Of a DNA stretch of 57,893 nt, positions 945 to 55,457 are shown piece by piece; positions within the stretch are counted from its first letter, which is position 1; the number at the start of each line of letters is the position of its first letter. Source of the stretch: a virus (Duplodnaviria > Caudoviricetes); IMG/VR virus record IMGVR_UViG_3300025168_000100, positions 1-57,893 of that record; one strand, 5' to 3'. The position numbers and the translations under genes are program-made. Below the pieces are notes generated by a model. That model saw only the letters and a list, made by a program, of their open reading frames with translations. It was not told where the DNA came from and did no database searches.

Positions 945-1097
945 ATGAAAAATCTTTTATCAACTTTACTTTTATTAGCCGTAATAGCTATGTGTTTCAC
1001 TTCATGCAGTAGCAGTAACTCAACTGCGTGTTACGAGCGTGATGGTAACGGAAACATTAACAAGGTGCGTCACCCTCAGTGTGTACAACATTGGTAG
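945..1097 (+). CDS. Small lipoprotein (50 aa; absent from the ORF track)
   Basis: Hand translation MKNLLSTLLLLAVIAMCFTSCSSSNSTACYERDGNGNINKVRHPQCVQHW: basic N-terminus, hydrophobic h-region, lipobox-like FTS-C. Confidence 0.75.
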   Translation: MKNLLSTLLLLAVIAMCFTSCSSSNSTACYERDGNGNINKVRHPQCVQHW

Positions 1098-1114
1098 TTC
1101 ACCGACTGAACTAC
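1094..1114. promoter_or_regulatory. GTTCA-N5-TGAAC palindrome (copy 4 of 5 in genome order)
   Basis: GTAGTTCA-ccgac-TGAACTAC, perfect 8-bp arms; overlaps the TAG of the lipoprotein gene. Confidence 0.75.
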
Positions 1115-1137
1115 AATTAAATCTAAATCTTTTAATC

Positions 1138-1413
1138 ATGAAGTATCAAGTACAAAATTTTATTAGCAATAGCGGAAACCCCGTAGCCAATCAATTCAAA
1201 ATCCGCACACCTCGTGCGGTCTTATTCCAATCTTATCGCAGTATCATAGCGAAGAAAGATACACGGACGGGCAAAGTAACCCTAGATAAATACTATTGGG
1301 ATTACTCGACTACGACAGGTAAATACCGCAACCAATTTTTAGGTGAGGGGATAGCTGAAACGAGGGATAGAATCAAGAGTGGTGAGTACACACTTAAAAA
1401 TTTGAACTCATGA
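1138..1413 (+). CDS. Conserved-looking phage early protein (start moved to ATG 1138)
   Basis: MKYQVQNFISNSGNPVANQF...WDYSTTTGKYRNQFLGE; AT-rich leader before 1138. Confidence 0.8.
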   Translation: MKYQVQNFISNSGNPVANQFKIRTPRAVLFQSYRSIIAKKDTRTGKVTLDKYYWDYSTTTGKYRNQFLGEGIAETRDRIKSGEYTLKNLNS

Positions 1414-3448: not shown

Positions 3449-3521
3449 CTGAAACGGAGCGCACGTTTAATAATTCTAAACAGGTACTAACGTGCTAGGG
3501 GTTCGAGCCCCCTATATATCT
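3441..3521 (+). ncRNA. tRNA-like four-way element E2
   Basis: AGATATA/TATATCT acceptor-like stem; GCT-gaaacgg-AGC D-like arm; GCACGTT/AACGTGC stem with a 21-nt loop; TAGGGG-TTCGAGC-CCCCTA T-arm. Confidence 0.65.
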
Positions 3522-3544
3522 CTAACATTTTATTACAAGAAACG

Positions 3545-3742
3545 ATGATTAACACCACAAAAGAATGGGATTTTATGGACAAGAAAATTAACAACACACC
3601 TTCCGTTGATGCGCTTATGAAAATGCTAGACGCACAACGTGATACCATAGATAGACTTCGTGAAAACTACGACGAGTTATCTAAGAAGTACACCAACCTA
3701 TACGATGAGAACGAGCGTATGCACAACAAGCTGAAGCTATGA
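3545..3742 (+). CDS. Coiled-coil hypothetical protein
   Basis: Heptad pattern in the C-terminal half. Confidence 0.7.
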   Translation: MINTTKEWDFMDKKINNTPSVDALMKMLDAQRDTIDRLRENYDELSKKYTNLYDENERMHNKLKL

Positions 3743-4033: not shown

Positions 4034-4062
4034 AAAGACAAAACCACTAGGAAACCACCGCT

Positions 4063-4082
4063 GACAAAATTATATTTGTCTA
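4063..4082 (+). promoter_or_regulatory. -7 promoter box TATATTTG inside a GACAAA/TTTGTC inverted repeat
   Basis: TATATTTG at 4071-4078; no consensus -33 seen. Confidence 0.55.
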
Positions 4083-4097
4083 ATAAATAATTAAATC

Positions 4098-4319
4098 ATG
4101 AATAAAAATAAAACTTTAGAGGGCTGCCGCAAGATGGCTAAGACGTTAATGACTTCCGATAAGTCGGGAGAAAGAAGAGAGGGCTTGGGCATGATGCGAG
4201 TGATAAGTATGTTGGAAACAGAAGAACGCAACGCTTATCATGGGCGATGGCTTAACTCTAAGAACACCACCGTAGTGAACGGATATCTGTATGCTAAAGT
4301 AAATGATATACCGTCATGA
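4098..4319 (+). CDS. Hypothetical protein
   Basis: 73 aa ORF after an AT-rich leader. Confidence 0.7.
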   Translation: MNKNKTLEGCRKMAKTLMTSDKSGERREGLGMMRVISMLETEERNAYHGRWLNSKNTTVVNGYLYAKVNDIPS

Positions 4320-4603
4320 ATAGTAAAGAGCAGATAAAAGAAACGTGCCGCAAGGTGTACGAACTATTAGCAGAAAAGAATGATGCGTATGGAAACTCAG
4401 CGTTAGAGCCTATCAATATATTTTCTAAGGGCAACGCCTCAGAATCTTTATGCGCAAGGATAGACGACAAACTATCACGAATTAAAAACAGGGGATTGGG
4501 CGACGCCACCGAAGATACCCTATTCGATTTATGTGGCTATTTAATTTTATTACTAATTGCAAATGAGCAAGACAAAACAAAAACTCCTACCACAAACAAA
4601 TGA
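4316..4603 (+). CDS. Nucleotide-modification-associated domain 1 (DUF1599-like) protein
   Basis: KNDAYGNS...RIDDKLSRI...EDTLFDLCGYLIL motif pattern. Confidence 0.8.
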   Translation: MNSKEQIKETCRKVYELLAEKNDAYGNSALEPINIFSKGNASESLCARIDDKLSRIKNRGLGDATEDTLFDLCGYLILLLIANEQDKTKTPTTNK

Positions 4604-4763
4604 TGGAGACAAGCATCTTGATGATGCGTACCACTATGACAAGTACAATGTCAATAGAGAAAGATTGTGTCACACCGCTACCTCAAGCATTATCTATGAT
4701 ATCTTTCAAGATATCGCTGATATAAATTGTGGTAAGAGAAAATTTACAACAGATGAAAGTTAA
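4563..4763 (+). CDS. Hypothetical protein
   Basis: Fills the gap between neighbours; start uncertain. Confidence 0.5.
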   Translation: MSKTKQKLLPQTNDGDKHLDDAYHYDKYNVNRERLCHTATSSIIYDIFQDIADINCGKRKFTTDES

Positions 4764-5070
4764 AATTTTTAATCAGTATGCTACTAAAGTAGCCAAGTTG
4801 TTTGATATTAGTGAAGAAGAACTCTTTACTAAATCTAAACGTAGAGATATAGTAGACGCTAGACAATTACTTTACTATGCGTGTCATAAAAGACCTATGC
4901 CTATTGTATATATCCAAGCTTACTTATTAAAGAGAGGGTATAAGATAGGGCATACGAGTATACTCCATGGTATAAATGCAGTAGACAACCGCATAGTAAA
5001 TGACTCTGACTACACAGGAATTCTTCAGAAGATACACGCGCCTAAATCAAAAGATAATGTACACTCTTGA
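4753..5070 (+). CDS. Stand-alone DnaA domain IV (Bac_DnaA_C)-like DNA-binding protein 1
   Basis: FDISEEELFTKSKRRDIVDARQLLYY...GHTSILHG resembles DnaA C-terminal HTH motifs. Confidence 0.8.
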   Translation: MKVKIFNQYATKVAKLFDISEEELFTKSKRRDIVDARQLLYYACHKRPMPIVYIQAYLLKRGYKIGHTSILHGINAVDNRIVNDSDYTGILQKIHAPKSKDNVHS

Positions 5071-5470
5071 TGAAGTATTTAATCAAGCCTTAGCAGACAG
5101 GTTTGCAGGTAACGTAAATGGCGTGGGCTATGAGGCTAGAATAAATCACGGAACTAAAATTTCAAAGGACGAAGAGACCGGAGAGATAGAGTTATTTAAT
5201 ATCAGCAAAGGTGGTGGTTACTATCTGAAACTCATGGGGTTAGAGATAGAAAGTTTCTTAGAGGGTGGTTGGAGACACGGAACTTATGTGTTATCTTTGT
5301 CTAACAATCGTTCAAGGCTTGACTCTATCGAGCGCTCTATCAGAAGGGAAGTCAATGGCTCAAACAATCCCGCCACACTTCGAGGACTACAAAAGCGCAG
5401 GGTTCAAGCTTTAGAAAGATATTCTTTTTTTAATCAACTAATAAAACAATCTAAAAATGGCGCAGACTAA
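5057..5470 (+). CDS. Hypothetical protein
   Basis: ATG 5057; coupled to its neighbours. Confidence 0.7.
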   Translation: MYTLDEVFNQALADRFAGNVNGVGYEARINHGTKISKDEETGEIELFNISKGGGYYLKLMGLEIESFLEGGWRHGTYVLSLSNNRSRLDSIERSIRREVNGSNNPATLRGLQKRRVQALERYSFFNQLIKQSKNGAD

Positions 5471-6086
5471 ATCTGTATTTGAAACATTGAGTGCTATCAA
5501 TGTAAACGACAAAGTAGAAAAAAAATCTAACCTTACTTATCTATCATGGGCATGGGCTTGGGCAGAAGTCAAGAAGGCTTACCCCGACGCTACCTATGAG
5601 GTTATTAAAGACCCTCAGACTGACAAGCCATGGTTCTTTGACCCTTCACTTGGGTATATGACTATGACTAAAGTAACTATCAAGAATCAATCTCTTGAGA
5701 TGTGGTTGCCTGTAATGGACGGAGCGAATAAAGCTATGCTTGACAAGCCTCGTAAGTTTACTACTCGCTACGGAGAGAAGTCTGTTGATGCTGCGTCTAT
5801 GTTTGATATAAACAAGACTATCATGCGTTGCTTAACAAAGAACCTCGCTATGTTTGGGTTAGGGCATTACCTCTATGCGGGTGAAGACTTTCCTGAAGTA
5901 AAGCCTGAGGTTGTTGAGCCTAAAGTATTAAAGGTAGGTGATGACAATTGGGTAAACATCTTAAAGTATATGGCTCAGAACAAAGAGCTTGGCTTAGAGA
6001 AAATTGTAGAGCAACTTAACAGTCGTAACTATAAGGTAACTCCTTCTGTTAAGAAGGCTCTTACCAAAGTTATAGCTAAGTCATGA
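5457..6086 (+). CDS. Single-strand annealing recombinase (DUF1071 / Sak-type, Rad52-like)
   Basis: VNDKVEKKSNLTYLSWAWAW...INKTIMRCLTKNLAMFGLGHYLYAGEDFP. Confidence 0.88.
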   Translation: MAQTKSVFETLSAINVNDKVEKKSNLTYLSWAWAWAEVKKAYPDATYEVIKDPQTDKPWFFDPSLGYMTMTKVTIKNQSLEMWLPVMDGANKAMLDKPRKFTTRYGEKSVDAASMFDINKTIMRCLTKNLAMFGLGHYLYAGEDFPEVKPEVVEPKVLKVGDDNWVNILKYMAQNKELGLEKIVEQLNSRNYKVTPSVKKALTKVIAKS

Positions 6087-7352: not shown

Positions 7353-9750
7353 AATCTTTCGCAACATTAAGGAAACGCAGACAGCATACCATGTGGATAT
7401 CAATGTAGTTCTTGATAGAATTAAGAACGGAGCTACTAAAGATTTGGTTAAGCTAATCAGAGCTGAGAAGAATAAGAACGAGCGCAACGAATTAAAGAAA
7501 GGGTTGCCCGCTATTTGTTTCAGTGGCATCTTCAATAAAAGAAATGACTCTTCTCTTGTTTCACACAGCGGAATCGTTTGCTTAGACTTCGATGGGTATG
7601 AGAAGAAAAAAGATTTGCTTACTCACAAGGAGCAGTTAACCAATGACCCTCATGTTTACTCAGTGTTTAACTCACCGTCAGGCAATGGCCTTAAGGTTTT
7701 AGTTAAGATACCCGCTGACCCTGACAATCATGTTAACTACTTCAATGCTTTAGAAAAGCATTTCGACTCACCCAACTTTGATAAAGCTTGCAAGAATATT
7801 TCTAGGGTATGCTATGAATCTTTTGACCCCCTCATATTTATTAATGAGAACTCATCTCTGTGGGATAAGATTGATGAGCCTGAATATAAAGAGCTTGTAG
7901 CTAGAAGAGACCCGCCTTCTATTCCTATAACCGATGAGAACAAGATAGTAGACATACTAATCAAGTGGTGGACTAAGAAGTATCCTATGGTAGAGGGGCA
8001 GAGGAATCAGAACACTTACGTCTTAGCTATGGCTCTCAATGACTATGGCATCAATAAAAGCCTAGCCTCTTATGTGCTCAATAACTACGCAAGTCAAGAC
8101 TTTAATGAAGCTGAGATACAAAGAACTATCGACTCAGCTTATGCTCATGAACAAAACTTCGGGACTAAATATTACGAGGACGAAGACCGAGTAAGTCAGA
8201 TACGCTCCAAGATGAAACGCGGTGTGTCAAAAAAAGAGATACGCTATCAACTAGAAGAGACTGCGATTGATAGTGATACCATAGAAGCAGTTCTTAATAG
8301 AGTAGAAGAGGAGAACTCTATGCAAACTTTTTGGGATAAGAACGACAAGGGTGTAATTAAAATAGTACACTTTTTATTTAAGCAATTCTTAGAAGACAAC
8401 GGGTTCTATAAGTATTGTCCGGAAGGAGGGAAGAACTACGTCTTTGTTAGAGTTACTAATAACTTAATTGACCACACCTCTGAGAAAGAGATTAAAGATT
8501 TTATTCTCAATCATCTCATACAGCTTGATGATATTACGGTTTACAATTACTTCGCTGACCACGTAAGATTTTTTAGAGAGGAGTTTCTTTCTCTCTTGTC
8601 TACAATAGATATATACTTTATTGAAGACAGTAAAGACACCTCTTACTTATACTACCTCAACTGTGCTATAAAGATTACTAAAGATTCAGTGGAGACCATA
8701 GACTACTTAGACCTCGATGGCTACGTATGGAAAGACCATGTGATAGACCGGAAGTTTGCTCTATGTGATTACACTAAAACTATATACGGAACATTTATAT
8801 CTCGTATATGTGGAGATAATAAGCCTCGGATATCTACCATGGAGTCAACTATAGGATTCATGATGCATGGGTATAAGAACTTATCTTACTGCCCCGCTGT
8901 AATCCTTAACGATGAAGTGATAAGCGATAACCCTGAGGGAGGTACGGGCAAGGGGTTGTTTATGAATGCCTTAAGCCACATGAAGAAGCTCGTGGTAATA
9001 GATGGTAAAGCTTTTGCTTTCGAGAAGTCTTTCCCATATCAGTTGGTGTCAGCAGATACACAGATACTATGCTTCGATGACGTTAAAAAGAACTTCGACT
9101 TTGAGAGATTGTTCAGTGTAGTAACTGAAGGGTTAACACTTGAGAAGAAAAACAAGGACGCTATTAAGATTCCTTTCAGTAAGTCCCCCAAGATTTCTAT
9201 TACTACTAACTATGCAATCAAAGGGACGGGTAATTCTTTTGCTCGCAGGAAATGGGAGATAGAATTACATCAGCACTACAATAAAAACCACACTCCTTTA
9301 GACGAGTTTGGTAAACACTTCTTTGCCGATTGGAATGATGAAGATTGGTGTAGCTTCGACAACTATATGGTTAAATGTTTACAAGGATATCTTGACACAG
9401 GTTTAATCAAGTCTCAGTTTGTAAACCTTAAGGTTAGGCAGCTATCAGCCGCTACGTGTCATGACTTTATAGAGTGGTGTGGTCTTATAGGAGATAGTAA
9501 CAACCAACACTTAGAAAGCGGTGGTAAACTATCTATGCAAGAGCTGTACTTAGACTTCATTGTAGAGCACCCTGACTACGCTCGTGGTGGGAAGATGACG
9601 ATAAGTCTGAATCGTTTTTACAAATGGTTAGTGGCCTATGCAGCTTACATAACAGGAGTGTCCCCGGAGTTGGGTCGTGACCCATCAGGGAAGTGGATGC
9701 GCTTAAGAACAAAACATGAATTAGAAACTCAAACAACAATTGAAATATGA
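7336..9750 (+). CDS. Primase-helicase (BT4734/VirE_N-like N-terminus, PriCT, P-loop helicase)
   Basis: KKGLPAICFSG, HSGIVCLDFD, SPSGNGLKVLV, EGQRN (PriCT), Walker A GGTGKGL, Walker B ILCFDD. Confidence 0.88.
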   Translation: MTQDVTIFRNIKETQTAYHVDINVVLDRIKNGATKDLVKLIRAEKNKNERNELKKGLPAICFSGIFNKRNDSSLVSHSGIVCLDFDGYEKKKDLLTHKEQLTNDPHVYSVFNSPSGNGLKVLVKIPADPDNHVNYFNALEKHFDSPNFDKACKNISRVCYESFDPLIFINENSSLWDKIDEPEYKELVARRDPPSIPITDENKIVDILIKWWTKKYPMVEGQRNQNTYVLAMALNDYGINKSLASYVLNNYASQDFNEAEIQRTIDSAYAHEQNFGTKYYEDEDRVSQIRSKMKRGVSKKEIRYQLEETAIDSDTIEAVLNRVEEENSMQTFWDKNDKGVIKIVHFLFKQFLEDNGFYKYCPEGGKNYVFVRVTNNLIDHTSEKEIKDFILNHLIQLDDITVYNYFADHVRFFREEFLSLLSTIDIYFIEDSKDTSYLYYLNCAIKITKDSVETIDYLDLDGYVWKDHVIDRKFALCDYTKTIYGTFISRICGDNKPRISTMESTIGFMMHGYKNLSYCPAVILNDEVISDNPEGGTGKGLFMNALSHMKKLVVIDGKAFAFEKSFPYQLVSADTQILCFDDVKKNFDFERLFSVVTEGLTLEKKNKDAIKIPFSKSPKISITTNYAIKGTGNSFARRKWEIELHQHYNKNHTPLDEFGKHFFADWNDEDWCSFDNYMVKCLQGYLDTGLIKSQFVNLKVRQLSAATCHDFIEWCGLIGDSNNQHLESGGKLSMQELYLDFIVEHPDYARGGKMTISLNRFYKWLVAYAAYITGVSPELGRDPSGKWMRLRTKHELETQTTIEI

Positions 9751-10214
9751 AAAAGAAAAGTCTAAAAGTCTCAAACAAAGGCGTCGTAAGAGGCAAGCTA
9801 AAGCCACGCGCCGAGCGTCGTAAAGCAGAACGTGAGAACGGGTACAAAGCCATGCTTAAAAAGCTTAACCTGACGCAGGAAGAGATGGATAACTTAACCA
9901 ACACAGGGGAGGTGGTTGAATACGAAACCAATAAGTATTACACAGGACCTTCAGAGGTACATGGTGAAGGTGTGTTTTCCGTAAGAGATATTTTACAGCA
10001 TGAGATAATAGGCTTGGGAACGATTGATAATATCCACAAGACTTTGCTTGGTAGATATACAAACCACTCGTCTCAACCTAATGCTAACTTCTATATGCTT
10101 CGTAATAGCGACCTCGTATTGATTGCCCTTGAGAATATACAGGCGGATGAGGAAATCTTTTGTGATTACTCTCACCACAATAGACCAACAAGCGAGACTG
10201 ATGAAGCACTTTAA
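9747..10214 (+). CDS. SET-domain protein-lysine methyltransferase with a basic N-terminal extension
   Basis: SEVHGEGVFS, RYTNHSSQPNA and IQADEEIFCDY match SET motifs GxG, RxxNHSxxPN and ELxxDY. Confidence 0.9.
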   Translation: MKKKSLKVSNKGVVRGKLKPRAERRKAERENGYKAMLKKLNLTQEEMDNLTNTGEVVEYETNKYYTGPSEVHGEGVFSVRDILQHEIIGLGTIDNIHKTLLGRYTNHSSQPNANFYMLRNSDLVLIALENIQADEEIFCDYSHHNRPTSETDEAL

Positions 10215-12002: not shown

Positions 12003-12369
12003 TAACGATTTTAGATACGACTTAGAAGTAGGTCAAGAAGGAGAGAGACTCGTAGACGCGTTGTTTAAATCTAAACGCATAGAAGTAAAGAGAGATAGTT
12101 GGGTAGGTAGAACGGGTAACATCGCAATTGAATACGAGAGTAGAGGTAAACCATCAGGCATAGCTACCACCGAGGCAGAGTATTGGATAATTATATTTTC
12201 TCGAGAGTACGAAGACAAAGTAATGCTTGTGTTGGAAACTAAAAGGCTAAAGGAAGTGGCAAGAAAATATCTCAAGGATGGGAGTGTTAAATATATGGGA
12301 GACTCAAACACCTCTAAAGCTGTATTAATTCCTCTTTCAGAAATTAGTAACTTTACTGTACATGACTGA
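11992..12369 (+). CDS. PD-(D/E)XK nuclease-fold protein
   Basis: GQEGE...IEVKRD...TGNIAIEYESRGKPSGI. Confidence 0.65.
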   Translation: MNFNNDFRYDLEVGQEGERLVDALFKSKRIEVKRDSWVGRTGNIAIEYESRGKPSGIATTEAEYWIIIFSREYEDKVMLVLETKRLKEVARKYLKDGSVKYMGDSNTSKAVLIPLSEISNFTVHD

Positions 12370-12601
12370 GCAGAAAATACAATTAAAACGAATTAAGCAA
12401 TTAGAAGCTGAAGGATACTATGTGATTAAGTTAATTCAGACAAATAAAAACGGGATACCTGACCTGATTGCTATACCACCTGACTCTAATGTTATCTTCA
12501 GCGAGGTCAAAAAACCTAAAGGAAAACTGTCGCGTTTACAGGAGTATAGATTAAAAGAGCTAGAATCATATGGACGAACTGAGGTTTACAGGGGCGCTTG
12601 A
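12362..12601 (+). CDS. VRR-NUC nuclease / resolvase
   Basis: TEQKIQ, GIPDL, FSEVKKPKGKLSRLQ. Confidence 0.85.
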   Translation: MTEQKIQLKRIKQLEAEGYYVIKLIQTNKNGIPDLIAIPPDSNVIFSEVKKPKGKLSRLQEYRLKELESYGRTEVYRGA

Positions 12602-25499: not shown

Positions 25500-26381
25500 T
25501 TATGGAAAACTCTTCATAACATCTGATTGCACCGCAAATAACTGTATTGCATTAGTAGAATCGTTAGTTAAAGTCACGCGAGCATAAGCACCAAGGATAC
25601 CATGAGCCTCAGCTACAGAGTTTTTAAGGTATAAATAATATAATACCGGGGCTGTAGGTAAGTTGCCGCTTGCTACAGTAGTGTCTACTACCAATTGGTT
25701 TATTCCCGCTTGAGGATTTACGTTAATAGCGGTAACAATGCCACAGAAAGTAGGGGCTGCCATAGTCGCAGGAGGTACTACAGGAGTAGAAAAATATAAT
25801 TTGTCACCAACATTAATGATACCATTGACTTTTACAGCAGCAGGATAATTTATCTGTACCGCTGCAGGAGCAGCTGTGTCAATAGTTATGCTTTGGCCTA
25901 TACCATTTACTGACCTTAAGCTATAGTTAGGAGCGCTTGTGTCTGAACCACTATTGTCTATAGTGTCTGAAGTACGTATAAAAGCAAACCATACCCCTTC
26001 TTTTTTTTCAAACCACGGGTAGCTAATTGTACCCTCGAGCTCGATATCTGTAACGATAGTAGTATCCCAAGCAGCATGTGACGTAGCTGCAGATGAAGAG
26101 TCTTCAGCCCCTTGAAAAGCTATAGTTTTAAATAGCTTATTCTCAACAGGCCCTTCGTTAAATACTGTTTCTACCCTAGAACTTACCGCTGCCCCGTAAT
26201 ATGTGTTATACAACGAAGTATTAGAATGATGCCTATACAGCCGTCCTTGGTAAAACGTGTAAAAACTATTGCTCATACCCGCCATATAGTCAGGAGTAAA
26301 ACTATAAAATGAAGGCCACCCCTTGATTCTTGTGTCAGAGTCGTATTTTAAAGTATAAGGTAGGGTTATAGGATGTGCCAT
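25500..26381 (-). CDS. Tail muzzle/stabilisation protein, C-terminal part
   Basis: GWPSFYSFTPDYM...FYTF...VFNE...KLFKTI...KKEGVWFAFI resembles the C-terminal region of crAss-like muzzle proteins. Confidence 0.6.
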   Translation of the reverse strand: MAHPITLPYTLKYDSDTRIKGWPSFYSFTPDYMAGMSNSFYTFYQGRLYRHHSNTSLYNTYYGAAVSSRVETVFNEGPVENKLFKTIAFQGAEDSSSAATSHAAWDTTIVTDIELEGTISYPWFEKKEGVWFAFIRTSDTIDNSGSDTSAPNYSLRSVNGIGQSITIDTAAPAAVQINYPAAVKVNGIINVGDKLYFSTPVVPPATMAAPTFCGIVTAINVNPQAGINQLVVDTTVASGNLPTAPVLYYLYLKNSVAEAHGILGAYARVTLTNDSTNAIQLFAVQSDVMKSFP

Positions 26382-43164: not shown

Positions 43165-43426
43165 ATCCTTGCTTAGTATCTATATTTTTTGCTATAGGAT
43201 TATCTATTTCCTCAAGAGCTTCCTTCTCCGCTTCAATACGGTTTAGAATCTCGAATGCATCAAATATAGCTAATTTTTTTGTAGCAGCTGCATTTTTTAA
43301 TCTATCTGCTGATAAATCATCTTCAGGGTCGTGCTTAATAATAGCTTCCTTAGCTACTTTAATAAGTTGTTCTACCGCCCTATGCCCTGCTTCGATTATT
43401 TTTAATTTAGTTTCTTTGGATGTCAT
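43142..43426 (-). CDS. Putative terminase small subunit
   Basis: Small helical protein overlapping the TerL start; assigned by position only. Confidence 0.5.
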   Translation of the reverse strand: MTSKETKLKIIEAGHRAVEQLIKVAKEAIIKHDPEDDLSADRLKNAAATKKLAIFDAFEILNRIEAEKEALEEIDNPIAKNIDTKQGFAERRSK

Positions 43427-43986
43427 ACCTGTAAAGTTATCTGATGGTCAAAGATTCTATACATAATTTCTCCATCTACTTTAAAAGCGTACTCACTATC
43501 GGGAGTAAAGGACACTTTTGTCCCTTCTAATATACCATGCTCTTGCATATAAGAATTAGGATATTTCATTATCCCCATTAACGGTTCATAAGTAAAGGGT
43601 TTATAAATGTAAGACTCTTCTGCTTCAACAGGAGCAACAAAACAATATCTGTCATGAGCTTTCCATTGTGTACCATTATGGTACATATAAAATTGCTCCG
43701 TATCGACAAAAAATAAATCTTCTTTAAAAAAACTTTTACCGCTCTTACGCCTACCTCTCATGTCATTATAAAACTTAAAAACATTGTGGTGCACAAGAAG
43801 AGTGTCCCCCTTTTTTATAGGTCCTTCATAACCAATAGGCACTTCTACTACAATAGCTTTTCTATTAGCAGAGCTGTGGTCTTCTTCAGAAGTATGAGTT
43901 ATAAACTCTACACCTTCCCACTCAACGGTATTGTCGTAGCGTTTTCCTTTAGAAGGTTTAACGATAAAATTAGATGGCGACTTCAT
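43423..43986 (-). CDS. Tandem GroES-like co-chaperonin-fold protein
   Basis: Two units with GroES-like patterns: FIVKP...AIVVEVP...IKKGDTLLVH and YCFVAP...GTKVSF...FKVDGEIMYRI. Confidence 0.6.
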   Translation of the reverse strand: MKSPSNFIVKPSKGKRYDNTVEWEGVEFITHTSEEDHSSANRKAIVVEVPIGYEGPIKKGDTLLVHHNVFKFYNDMRGRRKSGKSFFKEDLFFVDTEQFYMYHNGTQWKAHDRYCFVAPVEAEESYIYKPFTYEPLMGIMKYPNSYMQEHGILEGTKVSFTPDSEYAFKVDGEIMYRIFDHQITLQV

Positions 43987-44165
43987 TAAGACCCACAACC
44001 TTCACACTCTATAGGGTCATGCCCCGTAGGTTTCACTCCATTTAATTTCATCTCAAGCACATGTATTTGCGAATGCAAATCTAATCTTTCTACAAAATCG
44101 TTTGTAGCTTTTTTTTTCTCTACAAGCTTTGCGATTTCATTTTTTATAGATTCTTCACGAGTCAT
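43986..44165 (-). CDS. 59-aa helical peptide ending CEGCGS (absent from the ORF track)
   Basis: Hand translation; TAATG overlap with the downstream gene. Confidence 0.7.
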   Translation of the reverse strand: MTREESIKNEIAKLVEKKKATNDFVERLDLHSQIHVLEMKLNGVKPTGHDPIECEGCGS

Positions 44166-45467: not shown

Positions 45468-45911
45468 TTAGCCTTTTTTTGCTGACCCTCCAAAGAAGAA
45501 ATCTACAACGGTATTAACCTTGGCGCTCATTGCCCCAAAGATAGTAGAGATAAAGCTAATTTCAAACTCTCCAAGATTTATATCTTCAGTAACAAAGTAT
45601 TTAAACATTACAAAACTTAATCCAAAATATGCTATAGTAAATACTGTCGCTAAAATTTTTTGTATGATACTGTCATCATTATATAAATTCCTTGCGCTTT
45701 CACGGTCTTGTACTTCTAGCTGATATAGCTCTACAATCTGAGCGTGAGCCTGAGCTTTATCTTCCGGCGTAAGCTGTGACTCATCAATCATCTTACCTAC
45801 CGCACCAAGTAATCCGGCATCAGGAAGCAACTCACCTGCTACATTTAGAATGTCGGGGGCTTTATCCTTAAGCCATTTTCCTATCTTAGTGTCTTTAAGT
45901 TTCTTTTTCAT
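45468..45911 (-). CDS. Putative holin (GTA 3TM-holin-like)
   Basis: EVQDRESAR followed by two TM segments ending VVDFFFGGS. Confidence 0.65.
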   Translation of the reverse strand: MKKKLKDTKIGKWLKDKAPDILNVAGELLPDAGLLGAVGKMIDESQLTPEDKAQAHAQIVELYQLEVQDRESARNLYNDDSIIQKILATVFTIAYFGLSFVMFKYFVTEDINLGEFEISFISTIFGAMSAKVNTVVDFFFGGSAKKG

Positions 45912-46435
45912 TCGATATATATTTTACGTATGCGTCTCCCATCACTACATATATAGTATCCGTGCTCAACAATATTTACTTTTTGACCTAACAAATTATA
46001 AAATATAGTAGGTATAAAAGGTATATCAGGTATACTATGTATACTATTTTCTCCACAATTTACTGTTACCCATTGTTCAGTATATTCCTGTGGCCATGTA
46101 CCTAACGAATCTATCCAATCTACATCAGAAAGAAATCCATAAGAAGTGGTGTCTATAGTTAAGTATGCTCCATTCCAACCGTCACCATAGGTGTCGGTCA
46201 TGTGAATAATATAACTGTCAGCCATTTGTGCTGCTCCAAAATAAGGAGCTCCTCCTTCTAAAATTAAAGAGCTATCACATGTAAGAATTTCCCACCCTAT
46301 CTCATCAGGATAATCTCCTGCCGTACATTCTACAAATACAGGGGTAGGCTGCCCGAACAAATTAGATGACCCTAGTACCATCATGAGGGCCATAATAATT
46401 GAATACAGTAGTGGTGTTAAATCAATTTTTTTCAT
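45908..46435 (-). CDS. Secreted acidic protein with a T9SS-like C-terminal sorting domain
   Basis: Signal peptide; DTYGDGWNG motif; C-terminus FYNLLGQKV...GYYI...RKIYIE. Confidence 0.65.
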   Translation of the reverse strand: MKKIDLTPLLYSIIMALMMVLGSSNLFGQPTPVFVECTAGDYPDEIGWEILTCDSSLILEGGAPYFGAAQMADSYIIHMTDTYGDGWNGAYLTIDTTSYGFLSDVDWIDSLGTWPQEYTEQWVTVNCGENSIHSIPDIPFIPTIFYNLLGQKVNIVEHGYYICSDGRRIRKIYIE

Positions 46436-46806
46436 TACTGAAACTTCTTTAAAATAATTTCATCTATATTTTCCTGAACCTCTTCTCGTGTAGCGGCTAA
46501 CTGCATTAAGATATTAGGATTATACCGATTTACTTCTTCTCCATTATCAAAGATAATAACTGTAGGAATAGCAAAAATGTTATAAGAAGCTGCAGCTTTA
46601 CTATTTGAGACAATACATAAACGGTATTTTTTACAGTCTTTTAATTTCTCAAGAAACTTTACCTCATTGGCAGAATTCCATTCTGCCCAAAATTCTACCA
46701 CTGTAATTCCTTTAGACGTTTTATTATTTAAAGACTCACCGTCTACAAAGTCTTGACCCCATATAGATATAGGAAAGAATAAAAAAAAAAGAAGTTTAGT
46801 CTTCAT
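46435..46806 (-). CDS. Exported thioredoxin-fold protein lacking CxxC
   Basis: Signal peptide; VVEFWAEWNSAN replaces WCxxC; IPTVIIFDNGEEV cis-Pro loop. Confidence 0.75.
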   Translation of the reverse strand: MKTKLLFFLFFPISIWGQDFVDGESLNNKTSKGITVVEFWAEWNSANEVKFLEKLKDCKKYRLCIVSNSKAAASYNIFAIPTVIIFDNGEEVNRYNPNILMQLAATREEVQENIDEIILKKFQ

Positions 46807-47074
46807 AAAGTTTTTGTTTGATAAGCTTCAGGTCCTCCTTCATCTCCGTCACATCCTCCTGTGTGCTCATGATTGTCTGTCGAACAAGTTGGTCTTTCAT
46901 ATCAAACTCTATACGTGATACTTCGGCAGGTAAAGGCTCAGGTAAACCTTTTGCTTCTTCTATTTGGGCTTGCAAACTAAACCACATTCCGGCAAGAGTA
47001 AAGATAAGAATTCCTATACCTCCTAAAGTTTTAATGCTTACTTTAAATGCTGTCTCTTCACTAAGTTCTTTCAT
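46796..47074 (-). CDS. Single-TM protein with a C-terminal coiled coil
   Basis: Hydrophobic segment around residues 14-33, then heptads. Confidence 0.75.
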   Translation of the reverse strand: MKELSEETAFKVSIKTLGGIGILIFTLAGMWFSLQAQIEEAKGLPEPLPAEVSRIEFDMKDQLVRQTIMSTQEDVTEMKEDLKLIKQKLYED

Positions 47075-47077
47075 GTC

Positions 47078-48118
47078 TTAAAAAAATAGATAGTTAAACC
47101 CTGCTCTACCTGCATATGAATCAATGCCCCAATACTGAAGGTATCGAGCCTCGACAAAGATACTAAAATGTTTATTGAGCTTTGCGCCTATGATGCAACC
47201 CGTATCCCACTCTAGCTGTGCACTTAACTCTCCTATGTAAATGCCTGAATATGTGAAAGAAAAGTCTGACAAACCTTTGTGTAAAAAGTATGTAGAACAC
47301 CATGTATGTATCCACGCTTGCTCAGTATACCAATAGTAGTCTATACCCATCACTGCAGAAAGCTCTTGCTGCAACCCTAATTGCTGAAGCTGCTCTCTGT
47401 TATATTGGTTTACAGCTTTACCGAAATGATAGGTATAAAATTCTACATCAGATTGCGCGACTACATTTCCATTCTGTATCCATACCTCACTGTCATCGCT
47501 ATAGTACCCAAACTCATTTGCCAACTGCCACCAATGTTTATTGTTAGGGTCAGCGAACCATGCGTCTATAGGAGAGTATCCATATACCGGATGCGCTCTA
47601 TGAGACACTCCGAGTGTAAAGTCTATATTCCCTAAGCGCTTTCTCCATCGGACTTCAGCTTGGGTATACTTAAGATTGATAAGCCCATTGTTTACATAAG
47701 TAGCGCGTACTGCTGTATGGTCGCTAATGTATCGAACCCTGTATTCTTGCTGAGTAAACACATCCCCCCTATTTCTTACGGCAGAATATTCAAGGAGGTA
47801 CTCAAGTCCGGGTGCATTAGATATAGTAGCGTTATCGCTTATCTCATTTTCTTCTCCGGTATAGAAGTTGCCCTGCTTGACCTGATAGTCGAAGCGTGCA
47901 AGTTTACGCAACCCCACCGTAAAAACGTAGTTTGCTTTACTTACTTCAGTTATCTCTTCGAGATATCCTGAACCTGCTACTCCGTTTACTCTATACTGTT
48001 GATTCTCAACAAGAGGTGCGTTAGTACTGAAGCTCCCATAGAGCGTAGAAAAGCGTAACAACTGTGCTTGACATACAGAAGCTACGCTTAATAAAAGAGT
48101 TAAGAGGACTAACCTCAT
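47078..48118 (-). CDS. Putative outer-membrane beta-barrel protein
   Basis: Sec signal peptide, amphipathic beta strands, C-terminal beta-signal-like GRAGFNYLFF. Confidence 0.65.
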   Translation of the reverse strand: MRLVLLTLLLSVASVCQAQLLRFSTLYGSFSTNAPLVENQQYRVNGVAGSGYLEEITEVSKANYVFTVGLRKLARFDYQVKQGNFYTGEENEISDNATISNAPGLEYLLEYSAVRNRGDVFTQQEYRVRYISDHTAVRATYVNNGLINLKYTQAEVRWRKRLGNIDFTLGVSHRAHPVYGYSPIDAWFADPNNKHWWQLANEFGYYSDDSEVWIQNGNVVAQSDVEFYTYHFGKAVNQYNREQLQQLGLQQELSAVMGIDYYWYTEQAWIHTWCSTYFLHKGLSDFSFTYSGIYIGELSAQLEWDTGCIIGAKLNKHFSIFVEARYLQYWGIDSYAGRAGFNYLFF

Positions 48119-51812: not shown

Positions 51813-52035
51813 TAGTATACTGCGTATCCTTTATCATCATAGTATGTCCTGCGTTTTTGTCGTAGTATATAATATCATCAGGATGTATAACCTCTACATC
51901 TGTGCCTGATGAAACAACTTTACCTTTCTTGTAACGAAAGCTATTGGCGTCTTCACTAGATAAAAGTATACCCGAAGAAGTCTCCATCTCTTCCTCTATA
52001 GTGTTTATAATAATATATTTCCCTATAGGTCTCAT
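51778..52035 (-). CDS. groES: Co-chaperonin GroES
   Basis: MRPIGKYIII...TSSGILL...GKVVSSG...IIREHDVV. Confidence 0.92.
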   Translation of the reverse strand: MRPIGKYIIINTIEEEMETSSGILLSSEDANSFRYKKGKVVSSGTDVEVIHPDDIIYYDKNAGHTMMIKDTQYTIIREHDVVVVE

Positions 52036-53639
52036 GACGTAAGGGTATTTGCGGTAGCGTCTTCTACTGAACGAGCCATAGTGATGATAGCATTGGTAGA
52101 AAGTATAGTAGAAGCTACACTCACTGCATTCTCAAGAGCGCTACGTGTAACTTTGAGCGGGTCTATAACCCCCATCTTATACATATCACCGAACTCATTG
52201 GTCTTTATATTGTACCCTTCGTCATAACCTTTTGATGCATCAAGGCCAAACTCAGCTATCCCTGCGTTGTCAAGAATCTGTTGAAGAGGAGCGCGAAGCG
52301 CGACGCGCAGAATTTTTTGCGCTATCGTTCCGTCCTCTTTAATTTTCTCTGACTCGTTATATAAAGCTATGCCTCCACCGGGGAGTATACCTTCTTCAAG
52401 GGCTGAACGTACAGCACACACCGCATCGTCAATCCTATCGTAAAGCTCTTTCTGCTCAAGGTCTGTATTGCCCCCTGCGTATATCACACCTATGCCGCCT
52501 GTCAGCGAAGCTATGCGTGACAGTATAAACTCACGGTCACCCTTCTTCTCTGTAATCTTAATAGCGTCATGGAGTTGTTTTACTCTCTCGTCAATAGCTT
52601 CTTGGTTCTCACTTATGTCATCCTTCAGGATAACAGAAGAGTCTTTACCTACGATAACTTTCTCAGCATGGCCTAGGTCAGAAGGCGTCATATGTGTAAG
52701 GTCATCGCCTGTCTTCTGTGAGAAATATGTCGCCCCTACACTAAGAGCTATATCGTTCATCAGCTCATGCTGACGGTATCCGAAGCTTGGAGGAGAGATG
52801 ATACATATCTTCACATCGCGCTTCATCACGTTAGCCGCTATGGTGTTCACTACGTTCTGTGAGCAGGGAGCTATAATAAGTAACTTCTTATTGTCAGCGA
52901 TGATAGGCTTAAGGACATTCTCTAGCTGTAGGATATTTGATATCTCAGCGTCAGACACAAGGATATAGGTATCCTCGAAGATACACTCGTCGCGCTTATG
53001 GTCATTAATAAAGAGTGGAGACATATACCCTCTATCAGCCTTTAAGCCATGAGTAGTCTCATAGTATGTCTCACTGTTCATAGAGCGGTCTACCGTTACT
53101 ATGCCTGTAGTACCTACCTCTTTATATATCTTAGATATGATGTCACCGATTTTCGTATCGTTGTTAGCGGAGATGGTAGCTACATCTTTTAATCTCCCCT
53201 TCGTTACTGCACGAGAGTGCTTCTTTAAAGAAGCCACAACCTTGTCAGTCTCTGACATAAGGTCACGCAGTATGTCAGTTTTTTGAGCGTTGTCCTCTAT
53301 CATGTGCATACCCGCACGTACAAGTGCACGTGTTAAGACAATAGATGTAGTAGTCCCATCACCTGCTGAGGTAGCTGTACGCTCGGCGGCCTCCTTCATC
53401 ATACGAACCGCAAGGTTCTCTGTAGGGTCTATAAGGTCAACAGCTTTAGCTACTGTCACACCGTCCTTAGTTACTGTGATACCGTGAGTGTGGTGGGGCG
53501 ATTCAATTAAGACTGTCTGACCTGCCGGGCCTAGTGTGCTGCTTACAGCATTAGCTATAGTCTCAATTCCGTTTACGAGTTTAGCTCGAGCTGCCTCGTT
53601 GAACTCCAATCTCTTTGGAGTGATTCCTGATTCCTGCAT
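52032..53639 (-). CDS. groEL: Chaperonin GroEL
   Basis: TLGPAG, VTKDGVTVAK, AGDGTTT, EEGILPGGG, GVIDPLKVTRSAL; no GGM tail. Confidence 0.97.
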   Translation of the reverse strand: MQESGITPKRLEFNEAARAKLVNGIETIANAVSSTLGPAGQTVLIESPHHTHGITVTKDGVTVAKAVDLIDPTENLAVRMMKEAAERTATSAGDGTTTSIVLTRALVRAGMHMIEDNAQKTDILRDLMSETDKVVASLKKHSRAVTKGRLKDVATISANNDTKIGDIISKIYKEVGTTGIVTVDRSMNSETYYETTHGLKADRGYMSPLFINDHKRDECIFEDTYILVSDAEISNILQLENVLKPIIADNKKLLIIAPCSQNVVNTIAANVMKRDVKICIISPPSFGYRQHELMNDIALSVGATYFSQKTGDDLTHMTPSDLGHAEKVIVGKDSSVILKDDISENQEAIDERVKQLHDAIKITEKKGDREFILSRIASLTGGIGVIYAGGNTDLEQKELYDRIDDAVCAVRSALEEGILPGGGIALYNESEKIKEDGTIAQKILRVALRAPLQQILDNAGIAEFGLDASKGYDEGYNIKTNEFGDMYKMGVIDPLKVTRSALENAVSVASTILSTNAIITMARSVEDATANTLTS

Positions 53640-54673: not shown

Positions 54674-54832
54674 TTACCTTTTAGATTTCTTAGCGTAGTT
54701 AGGGTCTTTGCAATATTTACTCGCAGCCATATTCGCATAAGCTGAAGGATACGTATCAAACGTACGCTTTGCCCAAGCAATGCCTGCTGCACATATCTTG
54801 TTCCCTTTTTTTTTAGTTCTTCCCTTAGCCAT
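54674..54832 (-). CDS. 52-aa basic peptide (YPSAYAN motif)
   Basis: MAKGRTKKKGNKICAAGIAWAKRTFDTYPSAYANMAASKYCK...; TAATG overlap. Confidence 0.7.
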   Translation of the reverse strand: MAKGRTKKKGNKICAAGIAWAKRTFDTYPSAYANMAASKYCKDPNYAKKSKR

Positions 54833-55431
54833 TACAACAAGTCACTTTCATTTATTAAAGTATATGTGAAACAATTTTTCCATATGTCTTTTGAATGCTC
54901 ACACGTACGTATAAACTTATTGTACGAAGATACGTTTTTAAATACTTGGCATCCCGCGCTCCATTTGTTTACCTGACTACTCTCTGTGCGAGGATTACTC
55001 CTATGAATGTTTATCCCAAACAATCCTTTATCAAGAGTCTCAGGATTCATATCTAATGTGTTGTCTGTGTCGTTATCTCTATATACCTCCACGTCTAGCT
55101 TTTGAACGAGAGCAAGATACTCACCTCTATGGAAACCCAATTGATAAGCACCCCTATACTGATTGCACTTAAGTATAGCACAACCTTTTTTACTCATAGG
55201 GTTCTTTAACCAATGAGTACCCGCATCCGTCGTAATAGCAAACTCATTAACCTGCCACTCATCATTAACTTTATAAATACATAAAAGCGTATCGTCAAAC
55301 TTGTTCGCCTCCCGACTAGAAGAACGAACCCCTATGATGTTTAAGTTGTAATCACCACGAGTGAAAAAAGAATAACCCTTGCTCTCAATAACACTCTTTA
55401 TCTTATCTACTATTATTTTATTTTTTAGCAT
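54832..55431 (-). CDS. Putative endolysin, L,D-transpeptidase (YkuD)-like Cys peptidase
   Basis: GINIH...WSAGCQV His/Cys motif; start moved to ATG 55431, 4 nt after the -7 box. Confidence 0.7.
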   Translation of the reverse strand: MLKNKIIVDKIKSVIESKGYSFFTRGDYNLNIIGVRSSSREANKFDDTLLCIYKVNDEWQVNEFAITTDAGTHWLKNPMSKKGCAILKCNQYRGAYQLGFHRGEYLALVQKLDVEVYRDNDTDNTLDMNPETLDKGLFGINIHRSNPRTESSQVNKWSAGCQVFKNVSSYNKFIRTCEHSKDIWKNCFTYTLINESDLL

Positions 55432-55457
55432 AGAGCAAATATACACTACCCTAACCG

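Follow-up and report, generated by a model that had tools for sequence, protein, structure and literature searches.

Genes and deduced proteins of the envelope block

The virus record IMGVR_UViG_3300025168_000100 of IMG/VR was analysed over its entire length of 57,893 bases (estimated completeness 96%), and this stretch of DNA is referred to below as the window. Its minus strand carries a block of four genes, g346, g92, g123 and g175, the deduced proteins of which have export or membrane signals and which run directly into the holin-like gene g147. The five genes are arranged as follows.

47078-48118 (-): g346, 346 amino acids, predicted Sec-exported outer-membrane beta-barrel of a phage-only family
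46796-47074 (-): g92, 92 amino acids, small predicted inner-membrane protein
46435-46806 (-): g123, 123 amino acids, exported protein of predicted thioredoxin fold with the CxxC motif replaced
45908-46435 (-): g175, 175 amino acids, secreted accessory protein
45468-45911 (-): g147, 147 amino acids, holin-like membrane protein

Between g346 and g92 there is a gap of 3 nt; g92 overlaps g123 by 11 nt and g123 overlaps g175 by 1 nt, and the stop codon of g175 overlaps the ATG of g147 by 4 nt (ATGA). The four genes form one translationally coupled unit, and the open reading frames (ORFs), junctions and leaders from which a preliminary description of the window had proposed such a block were all confirmed. 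Leaders and membrane helices were judged by hydropathy and by a small-x-small/Q cleavage pattern (the slash marks the cleavage site), from which the cleavage sites were inferred. The leaders end with ..CQA/Q in g346, ..WG/Q in g123 and ..FG/Q in g175, and the Q right after the leader is nearly invariant among the relatives of g346 and g123, which matches the 'Bacteroidetes Q rule' in the form given in PMC10367356. The lack of a family match for three of the four proteins might be taken to mean that the block genes are merely unrelated neighbours or that the ORFs are not genuine. This explanation can hardly hold, as it is contradicted by protein identities of 40-93% across hundreds of contigs, by the co-occurrence and conserved order of the genes and by the many invariant columns of the alignments, which rule it out for practical purposes.

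The g346 protein was modelled with AlphaFold2 from an alignment of 53 sequences. The resulting model (predicted local distance difference test score, pLDDT, 78; predicted template modelling score, pTM, 0.69) contains 14 long strands, a helical insertion at residues 183-247 and an unplaced segment at residues ~74-100. All matches listed by a Foldseek search of the PDB were membrane beta-barrels, three of them at E <=0.001, with NanC as the best match (E 2.7e-5; target TM-score 0.51), followed by porins, FapF and autotransporter barrels. A fold search of the viral models of BFVD placed a viral protein without a name first (27% identity, E 1.7e-26), ahead of phage entries named 'porin' and 'outer membrane protein'. 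The protein combines a signal peptide and predicted antiparallel strands with an aromatic C terminus (..LFF, the terminal F being nearly invariant). Moreover, a HRxHPVYGYSP motif is conserved, and His173, His176, His271 and His280 are invariant or nearly so. The AlphaFold2 model and the Foldseek matches agree with the earlier suggestion of a barrel, and g346 is, on this modelling, a Sec-exported outer-membrane beta-barrel.

In the standard topology of outer-membrane proteins (OMPs) the N terminus is periplasmic and the odd-numbered strands run outward. Assuming this topology, segment 73-103 of g346 would form a long periplasmic turn. Among the non-strand parts of the protein, conservation was highest in this segment (0.81), with values of 0.51 and 0.35 for the putative surface loops L1 and L6, a distribution that fits a conserved periplasmic interface combined with variable exposed loops.

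Searches of Pfam, PHROG and NCBIfam gave no family match for g346 or for ten distant members of its family, PDB sequence profiles gave nothing below E 0.7, and no match was obtained in 50,697 GenBank phage records either by blastn with the block or by tblastn with three divergent barrels, a set that may lack records very close to the window. The barrel family is present on at least 553 IMG/VR stretches, and when the barrel profile was run against 1.84 billion cluster representatives, 354 were returned at E <=0.001, many of them fragments. The names attached to these relatives in any source were 'hypothetical protein' or bare gene-call coordinates. Look-ups in the Atlas yielded only viral 'hypothetical' clusters; DUF6850, Autotransporter, Phage_OMP (Pfam PF24653, known here by name from an Atlas row only) and a viral Por_Secre_tail cluster (0.81) are regarded as leads. 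Barrel relatives were also present on two contigs binned as a Woesearchaeota metagenome-assembled genome (MAG), designated L114 and L115, the former with a g92-like gene in addition; these are most likely phage contigs in the wrong bin. That a phage should encode its own outer-membrane barrel had been called unusual, which is a weaker point than claimed, given the 1,603 barrel OMPs described for huge phages (10.64898/2026.10.24.761521) and the many porin-like phage proteins in BFVD.

The g92 protein consists of a single hydrophobic helix (residues ~12-35) and an acidic, charged C-terminal tail of 57 residues that is predicted to be periplasmic; its sequence is that of a bitopic inner-membrane protein. 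Conservation is higher in g92 than in the other three proteins, with a mean column identity of 71% and 30 invariant columns that are located mostly in the tail. No family match was found for g92 in Pfam or PHROG, and PDB sequence profiles gave nothing below E 0.7. Of the 'TM coiled coil' in the preliminary description, the sequence shows the membrane helix and the charged tail.

The g123 protein matched the Pfam family PF00085 (1.6e-5; 25.3 bits at a cut-off of 23.5), and the profile of its own family matched PDB thioredoxins (9.5e-12) with N..N at the place of CxxC. It shares with the thioredoxin family the fold, the sequence profile and the cis-Pro loop, and its C-terminal KFQ is conserved. 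The differences from that family are the signal peptide, the replacement of WCGPC by WNSAN, in which N44 and N47 are invariant among 26 sequences, and the location of the sole invariant Cys (C58) elsewhere in the protein; C64 is likewise present. The preliminary term 'Cys-less thioredoxin' therefore describes the fold correctly but not the Cys content, as the CxxC motif alone is missing. With NxxN in place of CxxC the protein cannot act as a dithiol oxidoreductase, and g123 is predicted to be a periplasmic thioredoxin fold without the redox site. An ordinary thioredoxin of 85 amino acids with intact WCGPC and no leader is encoded at positions 12264-12521 of the MAG contig L113, which also carries the exported protein without CxxC. 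Additionally, an extra exported protein of 100 amino acids is encoded between g92 and g123 in L012 (7295-7597) and L026 (4141-4443), where the homologue was confirmed by tblastn, and the g92-g123 gap of L041 is of equal size; the match of this protein to DUF2279 ('periplasmic lipoprotein') was weak (26.2 bits) and below the cut-off.

Linkage of the barrel gene to its partners and to lysis genes

The conservation of the block was analysed in a set of loci that was gathered in steps of 30 and then 80 viral loci, plus five loci from MAGs. After omission of 22 repeats of the same contigs, of the window's own locus (L001) and of a GenBank relative (L032), 91 unique loci remained, of which L030 has no complete barrel ORF. 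The partners of the barrel gene were sought among ORFs starting with ATG by means of hidden Markov models (HMMs) built from alignments made here. Genes resembling g92 and g123 were both detected in 77 of the 80 unique viral loci that have 1 kb or more of sequence past the barrel gene. The exceptions are L082 and L084, with neither gene in 4-5 kb of flank, and L086, in which the g92-like gene is present and the contig ends before g123. Within the 77 loci the three genes are contiguous in 47 cases and the g92-g123 pair is adjacent in 74. The barrel gene is separated from the pair by 0.5-4 kb of other genes in a clade of ~40% barrel identity, and the order g92-g123-barrel was found in L109. The linkage extends to MAG contigs of Flavobacteriaceae; the more distant MAG loci, with barrel identities of 27-29%, contain a g92-like gene in four of five cases and a g123-like gene in both of the loci with room for it. 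These data show that g346, g92 and g123 constitute an obligate, phage-only trio, and the co-occurrence in other genomes on which the preliminary description had made its proposal depend goes far beyond chance. In the freshwater GenBank relative L032 (MW202828.1), the place corresponding to the trio (4061-5606) is occupied by genes for a 150-amino-acid multi-helix membrane protein and a 207-amino-acid exported protein of no known family, followed by a peptidase M15 gene.

With respect to neighbouring functions, four types of lysin were identified beside the trio: M15_3, DUF5675, PG_binding+Amidase_2 and phrog_33083. A Peptidase_M15_3 gene (6.9e-17) directly follows g175 in L008 and is followed in turn by a holin gene (Pfam GTA_holin_3TM, 5.1e-7; PHROG holin, 9.8e-29), whereas a DUF5675 gene (1.1e-27) for a putative lysin is located just upstream of the barrel gene in some lineages. 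A gene for a PG_binding_1 and Amidase_2 protein lies directly after the g123-like gene in L113, and a 202-amino-acid protein matching PHROG 'endolysin' 33083 is encoded nearby in L099, L102, L104 and L110. Where 3 kb or more of downstream sequence is available (73 viral loci), 58 loci contain one of these lysin types (54 of the M15 or DUF5675 type and four of the L099 type) and 64 a holin-like gene, a designation that pools three seeds, namely the PHROG-holin, g147 and a two-helix protein of 70 amino acids without a family. Of the contigs, 29 measure at least 40 kb; here the fetched 6-13 kb contained a lysin-type gene in 22 cases and a holin-like gene in 21, at a random expectation of ~5.2, although the loci are related, so that shared synteny is partly inherited and the count of 22 versus 5.2 is not a probability. 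The distance between lysin and block on these contigs was 0-1,618 nt. The association of the trio with lysis genes is retained when the type of lysin, the type of holin or the order of genes changes.

The g147 protein contains one strong and one weaker hydrophobic segment, and its only match was to phrog_1544 (unknown function; 2.9e-4). Relatives with 41-51% identity are encoded after an M15 endolysin in L014, L018, L021, L026 and L028, and no direct BLASTP match was found between g147 and the PHROG-holin of L008; g147 is a putative holin. In the closest relative, L031 (barrel 88% and g92 93% identical), an M15 gene (1910-2377) lies between g175 and g147. This gene is missing from the window, in which the two genes overlap directly. 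Contigs from two other marine runs match the window as far as position 45911 and again from 45987 and are unlike it in between, one of them continuing for 471 letters, which fits the existence of strains with an insert between the two positions. Six-frame scans of the window detected none of the families Peptidase_M15_3, DUF5675, Amidase_2, Peptidase_M15_4 and Phage_lysozyme. Of the lysis cassette, the window has just the holin-like gene next to the block, and the sole endolysin candidate found, 43% identical to the 202-amino-acid protein of L099, is encoded elsewhere.

54832-55446 (-): candidate endolysin, 204 amino acids, matches to phrog_33083 'endolysin' (1.8e-16) and phrog_3000 (1.4e-36), no Pfam match

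The position of the block inside lysis cassettes and its translational coupling to the holin-like gene in the window would also suit a module for the timing or regulation of lysis, in which the envelope proteins would detect the state of the envelope or a superinfection and adjust the action of the holin, as antiholins or lysis-inhibition proteins do, instead of breaking the outer membrane; g92 in particular is small and bitopic, like many holin regulators. However, type and position of the holin vary among the relatives while the trio is constant, and we know of no antiholin system that includes an outer-membrane barrel or a periplasmic thioredoxin fold. We regard this explanation as very unlikely.

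A scan for spanin-like lipoproteins was carried out by applying a lipobox regular expression to all window ORFs of at least 30 amino acids with any start codon. It retrieved only 945-1097 (+) and 3487-3597 (-), both far from the block, in keeping with the earlier statement that no classical spanin pair is present. The ORF at 945-1097, which may encode an exclusion lipoprotein, belongs to the early region; its product of 50 amino acids has a lipoprotein-type leader with Cys at position 21 and three further Cys, and it overlaps a 124-amino-acid ORF at 1039-1413 (+) that matches phrog_21575 (unknown function). The related loci contain almost no lipobox genes, with the exception of L090, L101 and L103.

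A flavobacterial host of the phage is well supported by comparison of the large terminase (PHROG match 2.8e-175), which has relatives in 87 GenBank phage records named after Flavobacterium (68), Cellulophaga (15), Tenacibaculum (2), Maribacter (1) and Caudoviricetes (1), and by the MAG contigs with distant g346 relatives, which are labelled Flavobacteriaceae or Flavobacteriales. No tyrosine integrase was found in the window, and the phage is likely lytic on the basis of this absence only. Matches of public runs to the window comprise 19 DNA rows, from marine samples; a 226-nt contig within g346 was present in one oligo-dT RNA run, which is no proof of transcription. A scan of the window for sigma-70 promoters and terminators gave a result at the level of shuffled sequence, Bacteroidota promoters being outside the scope of the model. 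Other genes of the window specify a chaperonin of the Cpn60/GroEL type (52032-53639 (-); Pfam, 2.7e-51), a GroES-like co-chaperonin (43423-43998 (-); phrog_13932, 5.4e-21) and, in the replication region, a SET-domain protein (9747-10214 (+); 4.1e-10). The 293-amino-acid protein encoded at 25500-26381 (-) carries a domain of the crAss-virus muzzle C-terminal type (5.7e-13), which suggests that this 58-kb phage has a crAss-related tail apparatus.

The accessory protein g175 and type IX secretion

The g175 protein comprises a signal peptide, three conserved Cys and a tail of ~35-40 residues. Its model (pLDDT 73) is a beta-sandwich, and a fold search returned no PDB match at E <=0.001. Residues ~33-94 correspond to one copy of a 'DSYGDGWNG' module that is repeated in proteins of 950-1,900 residues, and 8 of 19 large proteins bearing such modules contain PF18962, the sorting domain of type IX secretion systems (T9SS). 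Sequence comparison shows g175 to be built from one module of large T9SS cargo proteins of Bacteroidota. Among the 77 loci with 1.5 kb or more of flank, 56 encode this protein or one with a similar tail and 21 do not, so that g175 is regarded as accessory. The four-gene system of the preliminary description is in this respect to be reduced to a constant trio with an optional fourth gene.

The tail of g175 was compared with T9SS sorting domains at several levels. No match to Por_Secre_tail (PF18962) or TIGR04183 was found in g175, in 21 relatives (E <=10) or in a six-frame scan of the window (E <=10), and identity with the Pfam T9SS tail was rejected on account of this lack of a model match and of length, the full domain having ~70-80 residues as opposed to ~35-40. 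An hhalign comparison of 53 distinct tails with 18 true sorting domains from the MAG of L113 (G001) gave a score of 17.1 (P 0.005; probability 7%). None of 200 column shuffles of the tail profile reached 17.1 (their maximum was 14.1 and their mean 8.4); in reverse, the profile scored 7.4. At a permissive alignment threshold, both conserved motifs of the tail align with the sorting domain across a 16-residue deletion. These comparisons lend modest support to the view that the g175 tail is a shortened derivative of the T9SS sorting domain. The C termini of the M15 endolysins (..AYK-D/E-x-D/N-G/N-x-T-KY..) loosely resemble the end of the shortened tail (..YI-x-NG-K-IKY..), a likeness that may be no more than a common beta-hairpin.

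Proteins with full or shortened tails were also found next to barrel genes in other lineages. In the clade of ~40% identity, the gene directly after the barrel gene encodes a secreted Cys-rich protein, the last ~30 residues of which share the pattern of the g175 tail (..YNLxGQ.. then ..G-IYI-x-NG-K-IKY..). In L113, a 994-amino-acid protein with a true Por_Secre_tail (3.2e-13) is encoded directly upstream of the barrel and holds GDGW modules matched by the g175 HMM. The MAG of this locus possesses a T9SS, as indicated by 39 matches to the sorting domain together with one PorV gene and five genes of the PorP/SprF type. HMM scans of this MAG for PorV and PorP-SprF matched other contigs and never the barrel of the trio, and an assignment of g346 itself to PorV (NF033710) or PorP/SprF (PF11751) was rejected, with no Pfam match and an hhalign probability below 1% (from thin target alignments). 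Phage-encoded T9SS cargo has been reported once, for the 'Cryophage' (Bellas et al. 2020, PMC7468147).

These observations bear on an explanation in terms of cargo handling, in which the barrel would be an outer-membrane carrier or anchor, a part similar to PorV or PorP-SprF, for phage proteins with full-length or short T9SS tails, and g92 and g123 would be factors of assembly or coupling. The tailed protein directly upstream of the L113 barrel, the like-tailed Cys-rich protein directly after the barrel in the distant clade, the origin of the g175 module, the score of the tail profile in relation to its shuffles and the tailed proteins in 56 loci all speak for it. Yet the trio occurs in 21 loci without any tailed protein, the barrel matches neither PorP_SprF nor PorV in Pfam, HMM scans or hhalign, the g175 tail fails the Pfam and NCBIfam models with an hhalign probability of merely 7%, and the neighbourhood of lysis genes is left unexplained. 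We consider cargo handling an improbable function of the trio.

Possible role of the trio and comparison with known systems

As a working proposal, which we judge plausible though short of probable, the trio might be an envelope-spanning device, built around the barrel, that acts in the outer-membrane step of lysis. Late in infection it would be assembled in the cell envelope of the flavobacterial host, where g92 would occupy the inner membrane, g123 the periplasm and g346 the outer membrane, with contacts made through the conserved g92 tail and barrel segment 73-103. After removal of the wall by holin and endolysin, the assembly would break or open the outer membrane, a task equivalent to that of the Rz/Rz1-type spanins in phages of Proteobacteria, for which the lipobox scan gave no candidate near the block. 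The physical act might be apposition of the membranes, opening of a pore or cleavage of lipids by the conserved His cluster, and g175 would be an optional rider, probably carried to the outer membrane by its T9SS-like tail. Of the functions that the preliminary description had suggested, an alternative outer-membrane disruption device gains support from the gene neighbourhood, with M15_3 and holin genes abutting the block in relatives and other lysins elsewhere, and is a possible function; for an uptake pore, and likewise for a nutrient porin, which was considered in addition, no support was found, as no phosphate- or nutrient-gene context was seen in the loci. A complex prediction with mature g346, g123 and the g92 tail, run with alignments, gave a score of 0.00 and counts neither for nor against binding.

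Several observations weigh against a lysis device. The 57-residue tail of g92 would measure ~8.5 nm if fully helical, which is below typical i-spanin periplasmic domains, and it would be unable to span the periplasm alone. No recognised lysin gene is present in the fetched stretch of 15 of the 73 loci, the association with lysis genes is partly inherited, as stated above, and the gene for the window's candidate endolysin, located on the strand of the block, is ~6.7 kb upstream and not adjacent. The relative L032, with a terminase that is 75% identical, has holin and M15 genes and no trio. Moreover, the four proteins and their distant relatives gave no match to a spanin or annotated lysis family in Pfam, PHROG or NCBIfam, and no cultured carrier of the barrel family is known from the 50,697 GenBank phage records searched. 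Small proline-rich lipoprotein genes were found directly after the barrel gene in L090 (6050-6235; flagged by the filter) and in L101 (2432-2623) and L103 (6044-6205; both read from the gene list), and these o-spanin-like proteins could pair with the g92-like protein there instead of the barrel. Finally, the T9SS cargo beside the barrel and the T9SS ancestry of g175 point as readily to roles at the surface or in secretion.

One such role would be host-surface remodelling or superinfection exclusion, in which the barrel and its partners mask or displace a receptor and thereby protect the infected cell or stop progeny from adsorbing to debris. Barrels encoded by phages are common, and a change of the receptor landscape has been proposed as their effect, with Lom cited as blocking LamB (10.64898/2026.10.24.761521); the porin-like phage proteins of BFVD are numerous. 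Within the barrel, variation peaks in the putative surface loops L1 and L6, as under diversifying pressure, whereas the most conserved part is predicted to face the periplasm. T9SS-tagged surface proteins adjoin the barrel in L113, but neither the obligate inner-membrane and periplasmic partners nor the repeated placement against endolysins of four types and holins is explained by this role. In addition, exclusion genes are usually early, and the block is located on the late strand of structural and lysis genes. Surface remodelling appears unlikely, although both this role and cargo handling could coexist with a lysis device.

The lysis proposal can be extended to a broader statement, which we regard as doubtful: phages of Bacteroidota may breach the outer membrane by a three-part machine of barrel, helix protein and redox-dead thioredoxin that replaces spanins, and the barrel may recognise shortened T9SS tails and so couple the delivery of phage proteins to the opening of the cell. 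The passage of these phages through the outer membrane at lysis represents a gap in knowledge, and their hosts are major marine carbon recyclers and major gut bacteria. Bacteroidetes, Flavobacterium and Cellulophaga are not mentioned in the main text of a spanin survey (PMC6139136), and spanins are rarely annotated in papers on flavobacterial phages (PMC8776804). Approximately 15% of phages of Gram-negative hosts are stated to be without spanins (10.1101/515445). A literature search yielded no description of the trio, of which unlabelled members might be contained in supplementary gene tables of flavophages. As a conserved phage-only set in lysis cassettes, the barrel-based trio provides a concrete and testable candidate. 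If the lysis proposal is true, it would add to spanins and disruptin a third solution, the first that uses an integral outer-membrane protein, and the T9SS-type tails would show phages exploiting a phylum-specific secretion signal; if one of the alternative explanations is right, the trio would still be an unstudied way for a phage to rebuild the surface of its host.

A comparison with the two-component spanins (lambda Rz/Rz1; Kongari et al. 2018, PMC6139136) reveals a similar combination of an inner-membrane N-terminal helix with a predicted periplasmic tail and an outer-membrane subunit, the same location in lysis cassettes, as seen in the relatives of the window, and the same presumed outer-membrane step of lysis. 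The o-spanin is a small proline-rich lipoprotein, whereas the outer-membrane part of the trio is an integral barrel of 346 amino acids; the trio has a third obligate subunit, the periplasmic thioredoxin-fold protein, lacks the embedded or overlapped gene architecture of spanin pairs and shows no sequence relation to them. Furthermore, g92 is much shorter than Rz. Lambda Lom and the OMPs of huge phages (10.64898/2026.10.24.761521) are, like g346, Sec-exported phage-encoded barrels of the host outer membrane. In contrast, g346 belongs to a separate family with ~14 strands, has obligate partners in the inner membrane and periplasm and lies near lysis genes, and the carriers of the trio have genomes of ~58 kb, unlike huge phages. 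With T9SS cargo proteins that are associated with PorV or PorP/SprF, and with the 'Cryophage' (PMC7468147), the system shares the host phylum, a tailed secreted protein encoded beside the barrel gene and the core module of g175; it differs in that g346 is neither PorV nor PorP-SprF, in that the g175 tail is about half as long as a sorting domain and in that the trio also occurs without cargo. The disruptin of phage phiKT (gp28; 10.1101/515445) likewise represents spanin-independent disruption of the outer membrane in a phage without spanins, but is described as a single small cationic peptide, whereas the trio is a membrane-embedded set of three proteins.

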